DNA of 64,000 nucleotides from a virus. The position numbers and the translations under genes were made by a program. Below the pieces are notes generated by a model that was not told the DNA's origin, ran no database searches, and saw only the letters and a list, made by a program, of their open reading frames with translations. Of the stretch, positions 9,734 through 64,000 are shown piece by piece (within the stretch, counting starts at the first letter, position 1; the number at the start of each line of letters is the position of its first letter). The stretch covers positions 24,469-88,468 of the IMG/VR virus record IMGVR_UViG_3300042261_002391. One strand, 5' to 3'.

Positions 9734-10229
9734 AAACTAATTCCATTAAAAAGCTAGTCACCTGACTAGCTTTTTTTATTGACTATAATCTTATTAAGAA
9801 TCATTTTAAATAAGCATCAAACATGAAAATAACAGCCAAAATATTTGCATATATCAATTTCAATTTATTGCCAGTTTTTAGGCGTTTTAAAGCACTCACC
9901 TTTCAACCGGATGCCTTAATCAGATTAGAAAAGATAATAAATTGCTGGGCAGATAAACCCTACCCACAGGCGTATCCCACCCTCCCCGATACCCCCCAAG
10001 ACCCCCCCTTTTCACGTCCGGGGTGCAGCGTCCATGTCCCCTCATAGTTAAAAAAATTCTCTAAAAAAATTTTTAAAAATCCTAAATCATTTGCCTGATT
10101 TCCTGATACTTACGCCATTCTATTAATTTTCACGACTAAAAAATTTTCAAAAAAAATTTGTGTGTGGCTTGTGATAATAATCTTGAAGATATTAAACGTC
10201 ATATTAAAAATCTCACAAGTCATTAACGT

Positions 10230-24399: not shown

Positions 24400-24501
24400 T
24401 TTTTATTTTTGATTATAATTTATTGAACAATAATAATATTCCAAATTCCGATATGGAATATTTGCGATTCTCAAATCACGAATCTGGTTATAATCAAACT
24501 A

Positions 24502-26055: not shown

Positions 26056-27019
26056 TTAATCAACTACGATTTCAAAATCGACATCTTTTTCACTTGAGCT
26101 GCAGTAAAATCTAAAGCTATAACCCTTATCTTTACAGGCAGCAATTAATCTGTGAGCAAATTCTTCACCACCACCATCATTTTCAGGCATTAATACCTCA
26201 ATATCGTCAATTATAATCGTCTTGAATGGCGGTTCTTTAATACTATCATCATATCTTGCAATGACGCATTTTTTAATAACTTCTTCTTTAACTGTAACAT
26301 CATTAAGAAGATTAAATTTATTTAAAACACTTCTCACGTTTTTATGAAATGTATTGCCATTACGAAAACTTACTGATGTTTCAGTGGGTAACACACCTAA
26401 TTTACCTTCTTTATTCAGAATTGAATTTGCAGTTCCCAATGCTTTCTCTAAACGAACTACATATTCAGCTATATTGTAGATTTTATTATTCCTATTAATC
26501 TTCATTGTCTTCAAATTTAAACATTTTTTTTCGTATTATCTCGTAGTTTTTAAAGCATAAGCACATTGTTTTAAACTCTTTGCCTTCTTTAGCTACTTGA
26601 TAAATATATTTTTCACCTTCTTTAATTGTTATCTGCAAACCATTATCAATTCCCCAATCTTTTCTTTCTTCCGGGGTACTATGACTCATTATATAAACAT
26701 AGCCATCACATAAACGTTCGAATTTAGATATTGGATATGTTCGTTTTAATAATTCAAAGTTTTGCATAGAACTACATTTATATACGAAACAGATTGAAAA
26801 AGGTTACAAAATATCTTTAATAATTTCATCAAACTCTTCTGCGGTCATACTTACTTCCATTCTAAGCTCAGAAATCTTTCTTATAGCAAACACTGCTTCG
26901 CCATAAGCATCTTCATAAATAACAAATAATTGATTGTCGTATTCGCCGGAAAATGGCTTCAACAAAGTCATTGCTGAATCTTCGTCGTAAATTGTAATTG
27001 CTTTTCTTTTATTTGACAT
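26056..27019 (-). CDS. three hypothetical proteins (26056-26514, 26495-26767, 26804-27019 starting MSNKRK)
   Basis: ORFs; the 26804 ORF-track start overlaps tRNAs and was trimmed. Confidence 0.6.
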
Positions 27020-35926: not shown

Positions 35927-35960
35927 ATTATTTTTACCCAACATGTCAATGAACTAAAAC

Positions 35961-35991
35961 AAAAAACCCGAAACTTTTGATTTCGGGTTTT
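35961..35991 (-). terminator. attenuator terminator of tRNA operon 1
   Basis: AAACCCGAAA-TCAAAAG-TTTCGGGTTT + U tract, between leader ORF and first tRNA; boxA-like GTTCATTGACAT follows at 35943-35954. Confidence 0.9.
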
Positions 35992-36010
35992 ACTTTATGC
36001 TTAATATTCT

Positions 36011-36145
36011 TTACGAACCTATCGCATCCTCTACACCCGAATCAATTACAATATTTCTGCCTGTAATGTTAGAACAGAATATACCATTTCCATTGCGACT
36101 TGATGTCCCAAAATTTGAACTTGATATGGTTGTAAAAGTATTCAT
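36011..36145 (-). CDS. attenuator leader peptide of tRNA operon 1: MNTFTTISSSNFGTSSRNGNGIFCSNITGRNIVIDSGVEDAIGS
   Basis: Translated by hand; residues 2-32 use only N,T,F,I,S,G,R,C. Confidence 0.88.
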   Translation of the reverse strand: MNTFTTISSSNFGTSSRNGNGIFCSNITGRNIVIDSGVEDAIGS

Positions 36146-36173
36146 CGTTTTTATTTTTAATTGTTAATATTAA

Positions 36174-36233
36174 TTCGTTTTCATCTAAATACGTTGCAAA
36201 GGTAAAAAAGGTTACACAATTTGCAAACATTTT
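36174..36233 (-). promoter_or_regulatory. composite promoter (housekeeping TTTG-N19-TACCTTTG + ECF TGTAACC-N16-CGTAT + late-like GTATTTA)
   Basis: Near-identical copy at 60951-61010. Confidence 0.8.
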
Positions 36234-49227: not shown

Positions 49228-49255
49228 AAAAAACCCGAATCTTTCGAATCGGGTT
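49228..49255 (-). terminator. attenuator terminator of Lys/Tyr tRNA operon
   Basis: AACCCGATTC-GAAA-GATTCGGGTT + U tract. Confidence 0.9.
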
Positions 49256-49286
49256 CTTTTAATTTCTGGCTTTGCAAAATCATTGC

Positions 49287-49382
49287 TTATTTTTTGCGTC
49301 CTGCAGAACAAAACATTCCCGATTCCATAAGAGATTTCTTATAAGATTTATAACCGTAATATTTTTTTGCAGTAGCTTTCAT
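49287..49382 (-). CDS. attenuator leader peptide: MKATAKKYYGYKSYKKSLMESGMFCSAGRKK
   Basis: Translated by hand; 10 of residues 2-16 are K or Y. Confidence 0.88.
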   Translation of the reverse strand: MKATAKKYYGYKSYKKSLMESGMFCSAGRKK

Positions 49383-49417
49383 TTCTTTATTTTTTAATTG
49401 TTCAACTTTTAATAGTG

Positions 49418-49459
49418 CAAATATACGCATAAATACGAAATAAACAAGAAAAGGTTACA
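49418..49459 (-). promoter_or_regulatory. composite promoter (ECF + late-like + TTG-N19-TATATTTG)
   Basis: TGTAACCTTTTCTTGTTTATTTCGTATTTATGCGTATATTTG. Confidence 0.75.
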
Positions 49460-49511
49460 AAAAATAGCAACATTTTTCAAAGTTTTTTCTAAATTATTGA
49501 TTTTCAATATT

Positions 49512-56908: not shown

Positions 56909-57607
56909 CTAACAAAATTTTATCCATTTTCGTATGGTATTGTCACTCACGCCATATTTCTTTCCAGTTGCAGCATATCCAATCTCATTAACACTATTCA
57001 ATAAAACATCTAGGTCTGGTCTGTCTACTTTACGTAAGCTCTTATGGTGACATTTTTGACACATAACGCTATTATTACTTATTGTTGCACCACACGAACA
57101 AAGCTTGTTTTTTTGTTTAGGTTTTTTTTCTCTAAATTTTAACAGCTTATTGTTTTTTCCTGCAAATGTATCTGATTGAGAATGACAGTTGGGACATAAA
57201 AATTCTAAATTTTCAATTCTGTTGTCATTATTAATACCATTTTTGTGTTCTAATTGTAATGATAATTTTTTACCTTCCCAACATCCAGTATTTCCGCATT
57301 TACATTTATACTCCAACAACCCTTTATTAATTAAACGTTTTTTTAGAGTAGCTCTATTCGTATAGGTTGAATTTTCAACGAGAATATCTTCTATTGGAAT
57401 TATTTCTTTAATTGATGTATGGTCACCATAATAATGATATTTAGGTATTACAATTCCTCTTTTAATTAGTTGTGATTTAATTGAGGCATATCCACCACTA
57501 CCGTTGCTACTATACCCAAAATTAATTAATACTTCCCTTAGTGACTTACTTTTTGCCAATACAGCAATAATCTCAGCATTACTATATTTTTCAATCTTAC
57601 TATTCAT
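56909..57607 (-). mobile_element. HNH homing endonuclease with C-terminal HTH
   Basis: LQLEHKNG...NLEFLCPNCH; GKKYGVSDNTIRKW; follows tRNA-Trp. Confidence 0.9.
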
Positions 57608-57673
57608 AACAATATTTTTTATATAAATAGTATTTCGAACAGCAAAAGTATTATTACATCAAAACTAATTTTG

Positions 57674-60646: not shown

Positions 60647-60719
60647 CGGTACTGATGGGACTCGAACCCACGACCTGAGCATAGACAGTGCCCCATTCTC
60701 ACCACTGAACTACAGTACC
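60647..60719 (-). tRNA. tRNA-Asp(GTC), U37
   Basis: GGGCA-CTGTCTA-TGCTC, G73. Confidence 0.9.
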
Positions 60720-60758
60720 GTATTTTTCAACCCACAATTTCAATGAACTACATAAAAC

Positions 60759-60790
60759 AAAAAAACCCGGCTTAATCTTAAGTCGGGTTC
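60759..60790 (-). terminator. attenuator terminator of tRNA operon 2
   Basis: AACCCGACTTAA-GA-TTAAGCCGGGTT + U tract; boxA-like GTTCATTGAAA at 60738-60748. Confidence 0.9.
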
Positions 60791-60817
60791 TTTAAACAAT
60801 AACAATAGAAAGGAGGT

Positions 60818-60925
60818 TTATTGTTTCAAATTTTTGAACCCGACTTTGCATAACATATCCTCTGCATCTGCCCATAAGAGGTCAACTGCCACAACCACTG
60901 CTAATATGTTTAGTAAAGTCTTCAT
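60818..60925 (-). CDS. attenuator leader peptide: MKTLLNILAVVVAVDLLWADAEDMLCKVGFKNLKQ
   Basis: Translated by hand; residues 8-25 use only L,A,V,D,W,E,M. Confidence 0.88.
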   Translation of the reverse strand: MKTLLNILAVVVAVDLLWADAEDMLCKVGFKNLKQ

Positions 60926-60950
60926 TTTGTTATTTTTTAAATTTTTAACT

Positions 60951-61010
60951 ATTCGTTTCATCTAAATACGTTGCAAAGGTATAAAAGGTTACACAATTTG
61001 CAAACATTTT
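60951..61010 (-). promoter_or_regulatory. composite promoter, near-identical to 36174-36233
   Basis: TTTGCAAATTGTGTAACCTTTTATACCTTTGCAACGTATTTAGATGAAACGAAT. Confidence 0.8.
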
Positions 61011-61078
61011 TGCGAGAAAAATTGATTTTTTTTAAAAATTTTATTTAATTGTTTGAATATCAGTAAATTAAAAATACG

Positions 61079-61495
61079 CTAAATATTAAATATTTTTGGC
61101 AGACCTAATGATTTATGGTATGAATTGAATATTGATTTAATATTTAATGTTCCAGCAGGATTCATTGAATGAACCAATATTGTTTCAGGAAGTGCTAGTT
61201 TATTTTCGGCACAGTAATCAATCAACCATTTGGCACAATCATATCCGGTTTTTTCAACGAAGCTATCGTAAAGTTCGTTATATGTTTCCGAACCATGTAA
61301 ATCCGGGTCATAGTGTTCATCAGCTAAATCATGGTCAAATGAAACCATTGTAGGCAATCCGTTTTCTTCAATAGCTTTTATGAATTCATTATAACTACGG
61401 ACAACTTTCCAGCCAAGCAAATATAATTGATTATAGGTATAGTCGAAACTATCTTGAGGTTGACGATAATCGTCGAGATATAGATTATAAGTCAT
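61079..61495 (-). CDS. cyclic-phosphate processing receiver-domain protein (RNA repair associated)
   Basis: LYLDDYR, SFDHDL, TGYDCAKWL, VHSMNPAG. Confidence 0.85.
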   Translation of the reverse strand: MTYNLYLDDYRQPQDSFDYTYNQLYLLGWKVVRSYNEFIKAIEENGLPTMVSFDHDLADEHYDPDLHGSETYNELYDSFVEKTGYDCAKWLIDYCAENKLALPETILVHSMNPAGTLNIKSIFNSYHKSLGLPKIFNI

Positions 61496-61497
61496 GA

Positions 61498-61695
61498 TTA
61501 TTCATTTAATTCGTTTACTGTGACCATAAATCTTGGATAATAGCCATTATCTGACTTTCCAAATATTATTAAAGACACGTCTTTTTGTTTTTCAGTAGGG
61601 TCACCTGTTGTGGGAATGATATTGATTCTATCATTAAATTCCGGAATTTCTTCCAAATCGGACTTAATTGTTTTTAACAGTTCTTCAGCATCCAT
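61498..61695 (-). CDS. hypothetical protein (start moved to MDAEEL)
   Basis: ORF-track start overlaps tRNA-Gln. Confidence 0.6.
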   Translation of the reverse strand: MDAEELLKTIKSDLEEIPEFNDRINIIPTTGDPTEKQKDVSLIIFGKSDNGYYPRFMVTVNELNE

Positions 61696-61710
61696 ATGTT
61701 CTAAATTTAT

Positions 61711-61785
61711 TGGTTGTCCAGCGTGGACTCGAACCACGACTCCGACAGTCAAAGTGTCGTATGCTAACCATTACATAACAGGACA
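61711..61785 (-). tRNA. tRNA-Gln(TTG), CCA encoded
   Basis: CGACA-CTTTGAC-TGTCG, U1:A72. Confidence 0.93.
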
Positions 61786-61788
61786 ATT

Positions 61789-62553
61789 TTATGAAAATGC
61801 TTCTTCTAAGCACATTATTAATTTTTGCATGTTTGCTCGATAAAAGCCAGCACTATTAGTACAACCACATTCGACTATTTTATACTGACCATTAACCAAA
61901 CACACATCCATTACAAACGTTTCATTTATTTCAAACAACTTTATCATTTCTCTTACGAAAGAATATGCTGATTCATCAACAAATTCATCTAAACAATACC
62001 TACCGCCTAAACTATACTGACTTGCGGTAGCAATTTCACCTTTTACAATCCAAAATCGAATTTCTTTTTGTATTTTCTTTACACTTGAAATCTGTATTTT
62101 AGTGTCAAGGTTTAATATTGTTGAATGACCGTTTGTTGATTGTTCGTTTTTAAATATATTCCATTGCTCCATATCGAAAACACGCCCGGTAAATACTTTT
62201 GTATCTTCAGTAGGTCTAGCGAAAAAAATATCTTCACGAAAAAAATTATCACCAAATTTAACGATTTCCGAATCATAATTCAACAAATTGTCTTTATAAT
62301 ACTTACTATATACTTCGTAATCATGATTTTCGCATAAAGTTGAACCCGGATACCAACCATATTGTTTGGAGATTCTCGACATTTTTACAGCACCAAAAGG
62401 AAACACATCATTTCTTTTGGTTTTAAATTTAAATGTTTCAATGAATGGTCTTACATTAACAATTTCATATGGTAAATTTAAACGATTCAATGCTAGAATC
62501 AAACTGTTATAGTTTTCTTCACGGAATACATTTTCTTGAACGATATAATACAT
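61789..62553 (-). CDS. ATP-grasp domain protein (DUF4343/R2K-like)
   Basis: FARP...KVFTG, EIRFWIV.G, VMDV, KIVE...NSAGFY. Confidence 0.85.
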   Translation of the reverse strand: MYYIVQENVFREENYNSLILALNRLNLPYEIVNVRPFIETFKFKTKRNDVFPFGAVKMSRISKQYGWYPGSTLCENHDYEVYSKYYKDNLLNYDSEIVKFGDNFFREDIFFARPTEDTKVFTGRVFDMEQWNIFKNEQSTNGHSTILNLDTKIQISSVKKIQKEIRFWIVKGEIATASQYSLGGRYCLDEFVDESAYSFVREMIKLFEINETFVMDVCLVNGQYKIVECGCTNSAGFYRANMQKLIMCLEEAFS

Positions 62554-62554
62554 A

Positions 62555-62857
62555 TCAAATATTTTCGATTATCCAATCAGTTAAATTAGTTTCAGCAGCC
62601 ACTTGATTATATGACCATTTACAATCTTCCCAATTTAACATATCTTTAGTCTGTTTATAGATTAGACTATCTTTTTCACAATAAATTCTAAATGTTTTAT
62701 ATCTCTCATCATCAGGATACTTTTTAGCATCTTTATATGCTGAAGATAATCCATGTGTGGACGTTTGGTAAACTTTACCTCGTTTACTTAAATTACTGCC
62801 ACGATGTTTATGTGGCTGGTAATATAACCCGGTTGGTACATGTTTTAATTTATACAT
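62555..62857 (-). CDS. hypothetical protein
   Basis: MYKLKHVPTGLYY; housekeeping-type promoter TATCTTTG at ~62873-62880. Confidence 0.65.
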   Translation of the reverse strand: MYKLKHVPTGLYYQPHKHRGSNLSKRGKVYQTSTHGLSSAYKDAKKYPDDERYKTFRIYCEKDSLIYKQTKDMLNWEDCKWSYNQVAAETNLTDWIIENI

Positions 62858-62912
62858 CGCTCTTTTTTCTTGCAAAGATAAATAATAATTTCAATCACAC
62901 AAGTATTTTTTG

Positions 62913-62995
62913 TAGTCCCCGCAGGATTCGAACCTGCAAACCCGTTAGAGTGTCGGCTTCAAAGACCGATGCATTAACCATTCTGCCAGAGGACT
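62913..62995 (-). tRNA. tRNA-Gln(TTG) with long variable arm
   Basis: TCGGT-CTTTGAA-GCCGA; extra arm ACTC-TAAC-GGGT. Confidence 0.83.
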
Positions 62996-63006
62996 ATAAT
63001 AAAAAG

Positions 63007-63053
63007 CTGTCTTGACAGGATTCGAACCTGTACTCTCTTGGTTCAGAGCCAAT
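63007..63053 (-). pseudogene. 3' part of tRNA-Gln(CTG), 5' acceptor and D arm missing
   Basis: TTGG-CTCTGAA-CCAA, T arm and 3' acceptor only. Confidence 0.75.
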
Positions 63054-63056
63054 AAT

Positions 63057-63133
63057 TGGTGTGTCTAGGAAGATTCGAACTTCTCACCAACAGAATCACA
63101 AGCTGTCGTGCTAACCGTTACACTATAGACACC
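63057..63133 (-). tRNA. tRNA-His(GTG), G-1 present, A73, CCA encoded
   Basis: GTGTCTA/TAGACAC, loop TTGTGAT. Confidence 0.88.
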
Positions 63134-63136
63134 ATA

Positions 63137-64000
63137 TCACGAGTTTTCATAAAACTCTAAAAATTTTTTAATTTCATTTTCAATATAAATTTTTCCTGAT
63201 TCACTATTAATACTTTTCCATTTAATTCTATAAACATTAAAACCGTTCTCTTTTAATATTTTATCTCTTTCAATATCATGTTCTTTTCTGTACTTATGTT
63301 GACTACCATCAATTTCCAAATCAATATTTTTATTTTTTAAATAGAAATCTAAAAAATAATTACATGAACTTCGTAATCCTAAATTATTTTTATTTATCGG
63401 AAAATTATGACTAAAATCAATATTATTATTTTTTAATACATTAATAAAAAATTGTTCAGGATAGCTTATAATATTTCTTGTTTGCCAACCTTTATGTGAG
63501 CCATTAAATATCGCATTTTCCATATATTTTTTCTGATTGTCGCTTCTTAATTTATTTCTACAAGTATCAGAACAACATTTATTTTTCAAATAAGAACCTT
63601 TATGACTAACATTAACAATAAATTCATTGTTACATATTATGCATATTCTAGTTAATTCAGGTAATTTAATTTCATTTTTCGTTCTTTTAACCTTAACGCT
63701 ATTTTTTAGTCTATTACTTATTTTATTTTTTGTTTCTGTTGATAATATTCTATTTTTATTATTAAAACTTGCAGCACAACTACTATTACAAAATTTATTA
63801 TATTTACTTATTATAGGTTTTCCGCAAAATAAACAATATTTGATTTTCTTCTCAAAATGACTTACATCGATATTATATTTTTTTATTAAAATATCTAATT
63901 TATCATACGTTGTTTTATTTGAGTAACCATAATATTTAAGTAACACATCATTTTTAGAATTAGCATTTCTTATAATTTCAAATAAATTTTTTTCTATCAT
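63137..64000 (-). mobile_element. DUF559/Vsr-like homing endonuclease
   Basis: SYPEQFF...YFLDF...LEIDGSQH...DIERD...YRIKW. Confidence 0.85.

Follow-up and report, generated by a model that had tools for sequence, protein, structure and literature searches.

What heads the last group of transfer RNA (tRNA) genes in a large phage genome when the available sequence stops upstream of them? This question is raised by IMG/VR virus record IMGVR_UViG_3300042261_002391, of which a stretch of 64,000 nucleotides (positions 24,469 to 88,468 of the record, referred to here as the window) was analysed. The window makes up the last 64,000 bases of an 88,468-bp record, position 64000 is the final base of the entire record, and the record is estimated by CheckV to be ~27% complete. 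Three tRNA blocks in the window are each headed by a leader unit, in which a promoter is followed by a short open reading frame (ORF), a hairpin with a T-run and then the tRNA genes. The last tRNA block, at 61711-63132 on the minus strand, contains intact genes for Gln, Gln and His as well as a Gln(CUG) remnant, and an earlier note on this DNA had predicted that a fourth attenuator, with a leader rich in His, Gln and Pro (H/Q/P) codons, lies past position 64000. We consider it very probable that an H/Q/P-enriched leader, a terminator and tRNA-Pro stand within ~0.5 kb past 64000 in this phage. With an equally strong expectation, the His/Gln genes at 61711-63132 can be regarded as the tail of a fourth attenuator-controlled tRNA operon, the head of which most likely lies within ~0.5 kb past the record. 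Because the record stops at 64000, the prediction cannot be read in the phage's own DNA.

A tRNA block at the end of the record

The three leader units inside the window are arranged as follows.

35964..36227, minus strand: unit 1, with composite promoter 36227-36197, leader ORF 36145-36011 and terminator 35990-35964, then the Cys...Met tRNA genes
49231..49490, minus strand: unit 2, with a promoter, K/Y-rich leader ORF 49382-49287 and terminator 49256-49231, then the Lys/Tyr tRNA genes
60763..61004, minus strand: unit 3, with composite promoter 61004-60974, leader ORF 60925-60818 and terminator 60790-60763, then the Asp...Trp tRNA genes

All three promoters are of the Bacteroidota type, TTTG-N19-TAnnTTTG, and those of units 1 and 3 overlap the phage's own TGTAACC...CGTAT motif. 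The tRNA block of unit 1 covers C, I, S, F, G, N, T, R and M, that of unit 2 covers K and Y, and that of unit 3 covers D, E, V, L, A, M and W, which bears out the earlier accounting that the three leaders take up 17 amino acids and leave H, Q and P. ARAGORN finds 39 tRNA genes in the window, almost all on the minus strand. The last block and the genes on either side of it are as follows.

63137..64000, minus strand: homing-endonuclease gene, DUF559-type, 287 amino acids (Pfam DUF559, E 6.9e-11)
63057..63132, minus strand: tRNA-His(GUG) (ARAGORN; Rfam tRNA, 52.4 bits)
62996..63056, minus strand: 5'-truncated remnant of tRNA-Gln(CUG), 61 nt, abutting the 3' end of tRNA-His (alignment)
62912..62995, minus strand: tRNA-Gln(UUG) (ARAGORN; Rfam, 59.4 bits)
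62555..62875, minus strand: ORF of 106 amino acids with no Pfam match (ORF list and Pfam)
61789..62553, minus strand: R2K-clade ATP-grasp gene (Pfam R2K_3, E 3.5e-17)
61711..61785, minus strand: tRNA-Gln(UUG), the final tRNA in the block (ARAGORN; Rfam, 54.2 bits)
61079..61495, minus strand: cREC_REC (cyclic-phosphate processing receiver) gene (Pfam, E 2.3e-21)

ARAGORN and Rfam agree with the earlier note that the cluster consists of His and Gln genes only, to which the truncated Gln(CUG) remnant has to be added. This remnant, which neither program calls, can be aligned with the Gln(CUG) genes of two related contigs (L065 and G006) over the part that begins at the anticodon arm and includes the 3' end, whereas the acceptor 5' strand and the D-arm are missing; in relatives, an intact Gln(CUG) gene stands at this place. 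The upstream end of the cluster was said to be off the window, and the case is in fact stronger, since 64000 ends the entire record. The endonuclease gene is nevertheless complete, its ATG being the last three bases of the record, and it aligns with a homologue in the related contig L134 from residue 1.

A host-type promoter (TTTG-N17-21-TAnnTTTG) is not found within 61100-64000, and short ORFs with at least 7 H/Q/P per ten residues are not found across the whole 88-kb record; the His/Gln block is therefore without a head of its own inside the record. A simple terminator scan of 60700-64000 missed even the known terminator of unit 3 and was not used. Proline is the sole amino acid that has no tRNA in the record, and tRNAs for H and Q are confined to the last block. 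The absence of an intact tRNA-Pro gene, noticed earlier for the window, extends to the whole 88,468-bp record: ARAGORN finds none there, Rfam finds none in the window at its gathering score, and 45 distinct tRNA-Pro genes of relatives, compared with the record by blastn, match other tRNAs only, so that no hidden non-canonical tRNA-Pro was found in it.

The sequence past 64000 exists in at least one assembly, as an 11,128-nt contig of a freshwater run (X1), the likely source of the record, matches 62500-64000 without a difference and extends at least 4.3 kb further. The adjoining piece was not recovered in promoter, protein and pattern scans of viral contigs, and scans of metagenome and genome contigs with the R2K protein returned only relatives of at most 77% identity, not the adjoining piece. 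Two stretches of the endonuclease gene, 63318-63345 and 63883-63904, have matches in further contigs of runs X1 and X3 as well, and the assembly break at 64000 may be due to such repeated endonuclease copies.

Fourth leader units in related phages

The closest view of what may stand past the break comes from a collinear relative, the 148.5-kb viral contig G006, which shares 19 ORFs with the window in inverted order at ~50% identity. Four leader units are present in G006, and their order agrees with that of the three in the window. Three of them head blocks like those of window units 3, 2 and 1 (D/E/L/V/A, Lys and Cys...Arg, respectively), and for units 3 and 2 short motifs common to the leader peptides of G006 and the window can be seen by eye. 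The fourth unit of G006 sits exactly at the break point of the window. Its leader and those of two further relatives, which have the His/Gln-R2K-Gln layout in common with the window, are the following.

57415-57486 of G006: fourth leader ORF, 23 codons, containing PQHQPQQ, behind a host-type promoter
7820-7894 of L065/L100: leader ORF, 24 codons, with 9/10 consecutive residues H/Q/P
2721-2795 of L070: leader ORF, 24 codons, with 9/10 consecutive residues H/Q/P

In G006 a terminator hairpin (-18.5 kcal/mol) and its T-run come after the leader, and the genes downstream of it are a Pro-like tRNA, an HNH endonuclease gene, Pro, Pro, His, R2K, Gln(CUG) and Gln(UUG). The runs in L065/L100 and L070 read QPQPQHPQ and QPQPQQHPQ, and their terminators, of -17 to -21 kcal/mol, are followed by Pro, Pro, His, Pro, His, Gln ... 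R2K, Gln.

A pattern derived from the L065 and L070 leaders, CAACATCCACA-N6-TGAATGGG, was searched in viral contigs and matches 26 of them (L127-L152), from many metagenomes. All 26 have a leader of the kind MKNL..PQPQQHPQ..EWG.Y., and in every contig that can be read this far (25/25) a CCCCATTC/GAGTGGGG terminator stands 24-34 nt past the stop codon and is followed by Pro/His/Gln tRNAs; several of the contigs continue with Asp, Glu, Val and Leu, as the window does with unit 3. A scan of viral contigs with CCNCAACAACATCCACA adds two more H/Q/P units, L165 and L205, neither of which is this phage. A leader thus precedes the Pro/His/Gln block in all of the relatives, at least 28, in which the block is readable, and the window holds the distal part of a conserved module that is headed by an H/Q/P leader in every readable relative. 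The earlier prediction of a fourth attenuator past 64000 is in this way supported for its H/Q/P leader, its terminator and its tRNA-Pro, all of which are present in the related loci. The CCCGA/TCGGG stem that had been named for the terminator finds no support in relatives, whose H/Q/P units use CCCCATTC/GAGTGGGG or GATCCCC/GGGGATT instead.

Relatives also provide a place for the endonuclease gene. A homologue in L134 (364-1212, minus strand) is 61% identical over 286 amino acids, and both there and in L140 (1883-2713) the homologue sits between tRNA-Pro and tRNA-His/Gln, with the ATG of the leader ~370-420 nt upstream of the endonuclease start. One DUF559-type endonuclease family is thus found inside the H/Q/P tRNA operon of three phages (the window, L134 and L140), and by analogy the gene in the window is probably an insert in the tRNA operon, between an off-record tRNA-Pro and tRNA-His. 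The head expected past 64000 would then begin with a host promoter of the Bacteroidota type and a translated ORF, ~22-25 codons long and containing a run of Pro/Gln/His codons, and would continue with an intrinsic terminator ~25-35 nt past the stop codon and at least one tRNA-Pro, before the endonuclease gene at 63137-64000.

A number of points weigh against a dedicated fourth unit at this place. First of all, the record ends at 64000, and the evidence for a fourth unit comes from relatives, of which G006 is only ~50% identical in protein to the window record. Second, the truncated Gln(CUG) gene, which is fused to tRNA-His, and the endonuclease insert mark this stretch as rearranged. The fourth leader could accordingly have been lost or never been present; RNA polymerase would then reach the His/Gln genes by reading through from the endonuclease gene or from farther upstream, and tRNA-Pro would be absent or located in the other ~240 kb of the genome. 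Such a loss would also be in keeping with a record that represents only about a quarter (~27%) of the genome and with pattern and protein scans of viral contigs that gave no adjoining contig with a leader. We find it highly improbable, as the leader is kept in every readable relative, L134 and L140 retain leader and tRNA-Pro directly upstream of the same endonuclease insert, and the three other units of this phage are intact.

Third, in the relative that is closest by R2K identity (G001, 77%) the Gln, Pro and His genes are part of a mixed block. Besides codons for Q, P and H, the leader of this block (unit B, 26150-26272) has codons for N, I, S, F and V, and the tRNA genes behind it are Gln, Pro, Pro, Phe, Asn, Val, Ile, Ser and His, so that a pure H/Q/P leader is not universal. 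L148 provides a smaller departure, in which the leader (2284-2355) has an added CGC (Arg) codon and the operon starts with tRNA-Arg(ACG) at 2440-2513, a natural co-variation of leader codons with tRNA content. By the examples of G001 and L148, a leader past 64000 could be mixed rather than dedicated to H/Q/P, with a different or more extensive set of tRNA genes behind it. This is unlikely for the phage studied here: units 1-3 already supply tRNAs and leader codons for the remaining 17 amino acids, the tRNA genes follow the order seen in G006 and not that of G001, and the neighbouring R2K, cREC_REC and endonuclease genes match relatives that have pure H/Q/P leaders. Finally, the fourth unit of G006 lacks a convincing antiterminator and ranks 15th of 15 for pairing with its own terminator arm in the tests described below.

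Leader composition and the proposed RNA switch

Composition and pairing were tested on 15 units from six phages. In these units, each amino acid that has a tRNA in the block is present in the leader of that block, Met aside. The fraction of leader residues matched by the unit's own block averages 0.58, compared with 0.28 when permuted, and 0/200,000 permutations reach the observed value. H, Q and P together make up 37% of the residues in 21 distinct H/Q/P leaders versus 7% in long ORFs; in the first three H/Q/P leaders examined the share was 36-39% (binomial P 3e-4 to 6e-5). Across these 21 DNA versions the reading frame and the H/Q/P run are kept, with synonymous codon changes. The codons used for H, Q and P are CAT, CAA/CAG and CCA/CCC/CCG, which by standard wobble rules can be read by the GUG, UUG/CUG and UGG anticodons of the downstream tRNAs. 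The terminator hairpins of the relatives and of window units 1-3 stand 20-36 nt past the stop codon and have energies between -11 and -21 kcal/mol.

The leader ORF of most units contains, in its 3' part, a segment complementary to the terminator 5' arm of that same unit, and the sequences involved vary between units; examples of leader segment and arm are TCGGG/CCCGA, GGCAGGG/CCCTGCC, GCTGAGTG/CACTCAGC, GAATGGGG/CCCCATTC and GACCTTC/GAAGGTC. This pairing exceeds that of shuffled sequence in most units, and is no better than shuffles in G006 unit 3 and in G001 unit A. Cognate pairing averages -11.7 kcal/mol versus -6.6 kcal/mol for non-cognate combinations, a difference reached in 0/100,000 permutations; for 11/15 terminator arms, the cognate leader is the strongest among 15 partners. 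When the RNA is folded up to the point before the 3' arm, the antiterminator forms in window units 1-3. In L065 and L070, GAAUGGGG has two possible partners, the CCCC within the regulatory Gln-Pro-Gln codons, with which it pairs in free RNA, and CCCCAUUC, giving a trp-like layout of 1:2 / 2:3 / 3:4. Rfam recognizes only tRNAs in the window and no His_leader, Trp_leader, Thr_leader, Leu_leader or T-box at gathering score; for G006 unit 4 the only non-tRNA match is a sub-threshold PyrG_leader (31 bits against a gathering score of 65), located on the terminator hairpin.

From these features we infer a ribosome-dependent antiterminator and, as a whole, an attenuation mechanism, which would operate as follows. 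When CCN, CAR and CAY codons are read fast, the ribosome at the end of the leader ORF would cover or free the wrong RNA strand, so that the terminator would form and transcription would stop. When charged tRNA-Pro, -His or -Gln is short, decoding would be slow, and the stalled ribosome would leave the downstream leader segment free to pair with the 5' arm of the terminator; with this antiterminator formed, RNA polymerase would continue into the Pro/His/Gln tRNA genes. In L065 and L070, a ribosome stalled at the regulatory codons would release GAAUGGGG to pair with CCCCAUUC. Slow decoding of Pro, His or Gln codons would act as the signal, and transcription of the matching tRNA genes would follow in response.

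The short ORFs could instead not be translated sensors at all, with the hairpins acting as ordinary terminators or processing signals and the match in composition arising as a by-product, for example of tRNA-derived sequence. The lack of a clear antiterminator in the fourth unit of G006 would fit such an explanation, which seems barely credible given that the composition match was never reached by permutation, that frame and H/Q/P run are conserved through synonymous changes, that an added Arg codon accompanies an added tRNA-Arg in L148, and that the leader-terminator pairing is unit-specific in spite of sequences that differ among units.

If the attenuation reading is correct, the fourth unit together with the three in the window would provide one sensor per tRNA block, with four blocks for all 20 amino acids. 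We lean somewhat, at a little better than even odds, towards a broader proposal: that giant phages of Bacteroidota-type hosts possess a complete four-channel, ribosome-read sensor of tRNA supply, in which slow decoding of its own codons would be the sole trigger for each block, that the H/Q/P channel is a conserved regulatory RNA family found in dozens of uncultured phages from many habitats, and that phages may use the system as an inducible response to host tRNA depletion or cleavage. The last point is suggested by the RNA-repair-type R2K ATP-grasp and cREC_REC genes held in the H/Q/P operon.

Known attenuators, passenger genes and further observations

Leader-peptide attenuation is the textbook control of amino-acid operons. 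As in hisL of the enterobacterial his operon, and in trpL, pheL and leuL, the phage units contain a short ORF in which codons for the amino acids to be sensed form a run, and an intrinsic terminator lies tens of nucleotides past the stop codon; in most of the units, a leader segment could pair alternatively with the 5' arm of this terminator, as in these systems. The L065/L070 layout is of the trp type, with region 1 formed by the regulatory codons themselves. In contrast to hisL, the genes to be switched are tRNA genes (plus R2K, cREC_REC and homing-endonuclease genes) and not biosynthetic enzymes, the H/Q/P leader would sense three amino acids at once, and the units occur in phage genomes behind Bacteroidota-type promoters with no match to an Rfam leader family. 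The regulated genes neither make nor charge the sensed amino acid, which places them outside the classical scope of leader-peptide attenuators, and more tRNA would relieve the stall only if tRNA, rather than the amino acid, is limiting. The multivalent leaders of ilvGMEDA and thr likewise combine codons for several amino acids in one leader with a single terminator; their amino acids share a biosynthetic pathway, whereas here the set is that of the tRNA genes in the block and changes with the block, as L148 and G001 illustrate. T-box riboswitches also use a leader in cis and a choice between terminator and antiterminator to report the state of a specific tRNA. They bind uncharged tRNA directly, need no translation, and control aminoacyl-tRNA synthetase and amino-acid genes; the phage units have an ORF instead of a specifier loop, and no T-box match was found in the window. 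The arrays themselves resemble those of other large phages (T4, vibriophages, Lak and other huge phages), in which tRNA clusters are interspersed with homing-endonuclease genes.

Neither for tRNA genes nor for phage tRNA arrays did a full-text literature search turn up a description of leader-peptide control. The logic of attenuation here appears to gate tRNA genes; tRNA supply would be gauged by the ribosome, and the phage would replenish only what runs low. The fourth unit was a forward prediction made from the accounting of amino acids alone and has been borne out in every readable relative, a test that a chance pattern would fail, and four units would be a complete set for the genetic code. 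Such a control may account for the way in which huge phages manage their large tRNA arrays and react to host defences that target tRNA. The H/Q/P leader family, with its 21 distinct versions and the L148 variant, offers compact constructs for a direct test.

The R2K gene occupies the same position in G006, L065, L069 and L070, and cREC_REC, just behind the H/Q/P tRNA block, was found by tblastn in L138, L141, L069, L065, L150 and G006. Both are conserved passengers of the Pro/His/Gln tRNA operon, and their Pfam families have been linked to RNA repair. Their conservation in or behind the operon of many relatives hints that tRNA supply and tRNA repair are co-regulated.

The phage itself is A+T-rich (32% G+C). 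By blastn the window is related to the huge phages LR7565xx and the Prevotella Lak phages, and the sequencing runs that contain it are freshwater and lake metagenomes. Look-alikes of the L134 unit were not found among GenBank phages, and in the stretch of LR756500 around its R2K homologue, where few tRNA genes are present, no leader unit beside them was listed by a script. Among candidates for the adjoining piece, L002, from a scan of viral contigs with the shared unit promoter, proved a chance match, and a scan of viral contigs with the large protein encoded upstream of G006 unit 4 returned only itself. G006 and G005 (IMGVR_UViG_3300025140_000001 and _000080, respectively) come from one metagenome, have a phage-type promoter in common, and are 45% and 29% complete by CheckV; G006 has 34 tRNA genes and G005 none. 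They may be two pieces of one relative's genome. Both came up in the phage-type promoter scan and were rejected as this phage, with no megablast match beyond tRNA genes, and a union of the two with the window record (G000), whose completeness values sum to 101%, was rejected as well because G006 has its own full tRNA array.

Among the first tRNA genes behind H/Q/P terminators, non-canonical ones are frequent that resemble tRNA-Pro(UGG) and have additional bases following the anticodon arm; examples are those of G006, L134 (oriented 9775-9861) and L131. The G006 gene, at 57558-57638 (L119:17558-17638), was missed by ARAGORN and scores 25.2 bits in Rfam, below the gathering score; that of L131, directly behind the terminator, seemingly has a C at position 33. 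A box of the form AGTTCATTGA[CA]AT stands between the T-run and the first tRNA at 35943-35955 and 60737-60749 (both minus strand; units 1 and 3) and at 2881-2893 of L070, and may be a processing or start signal. In L070 a phage-type promoter, TGTAAC-N16-CGTATA, is located at 2845-2880, right after the T-run of the attenuator, and a phage sigma factor could therefore bypass the attenuator.

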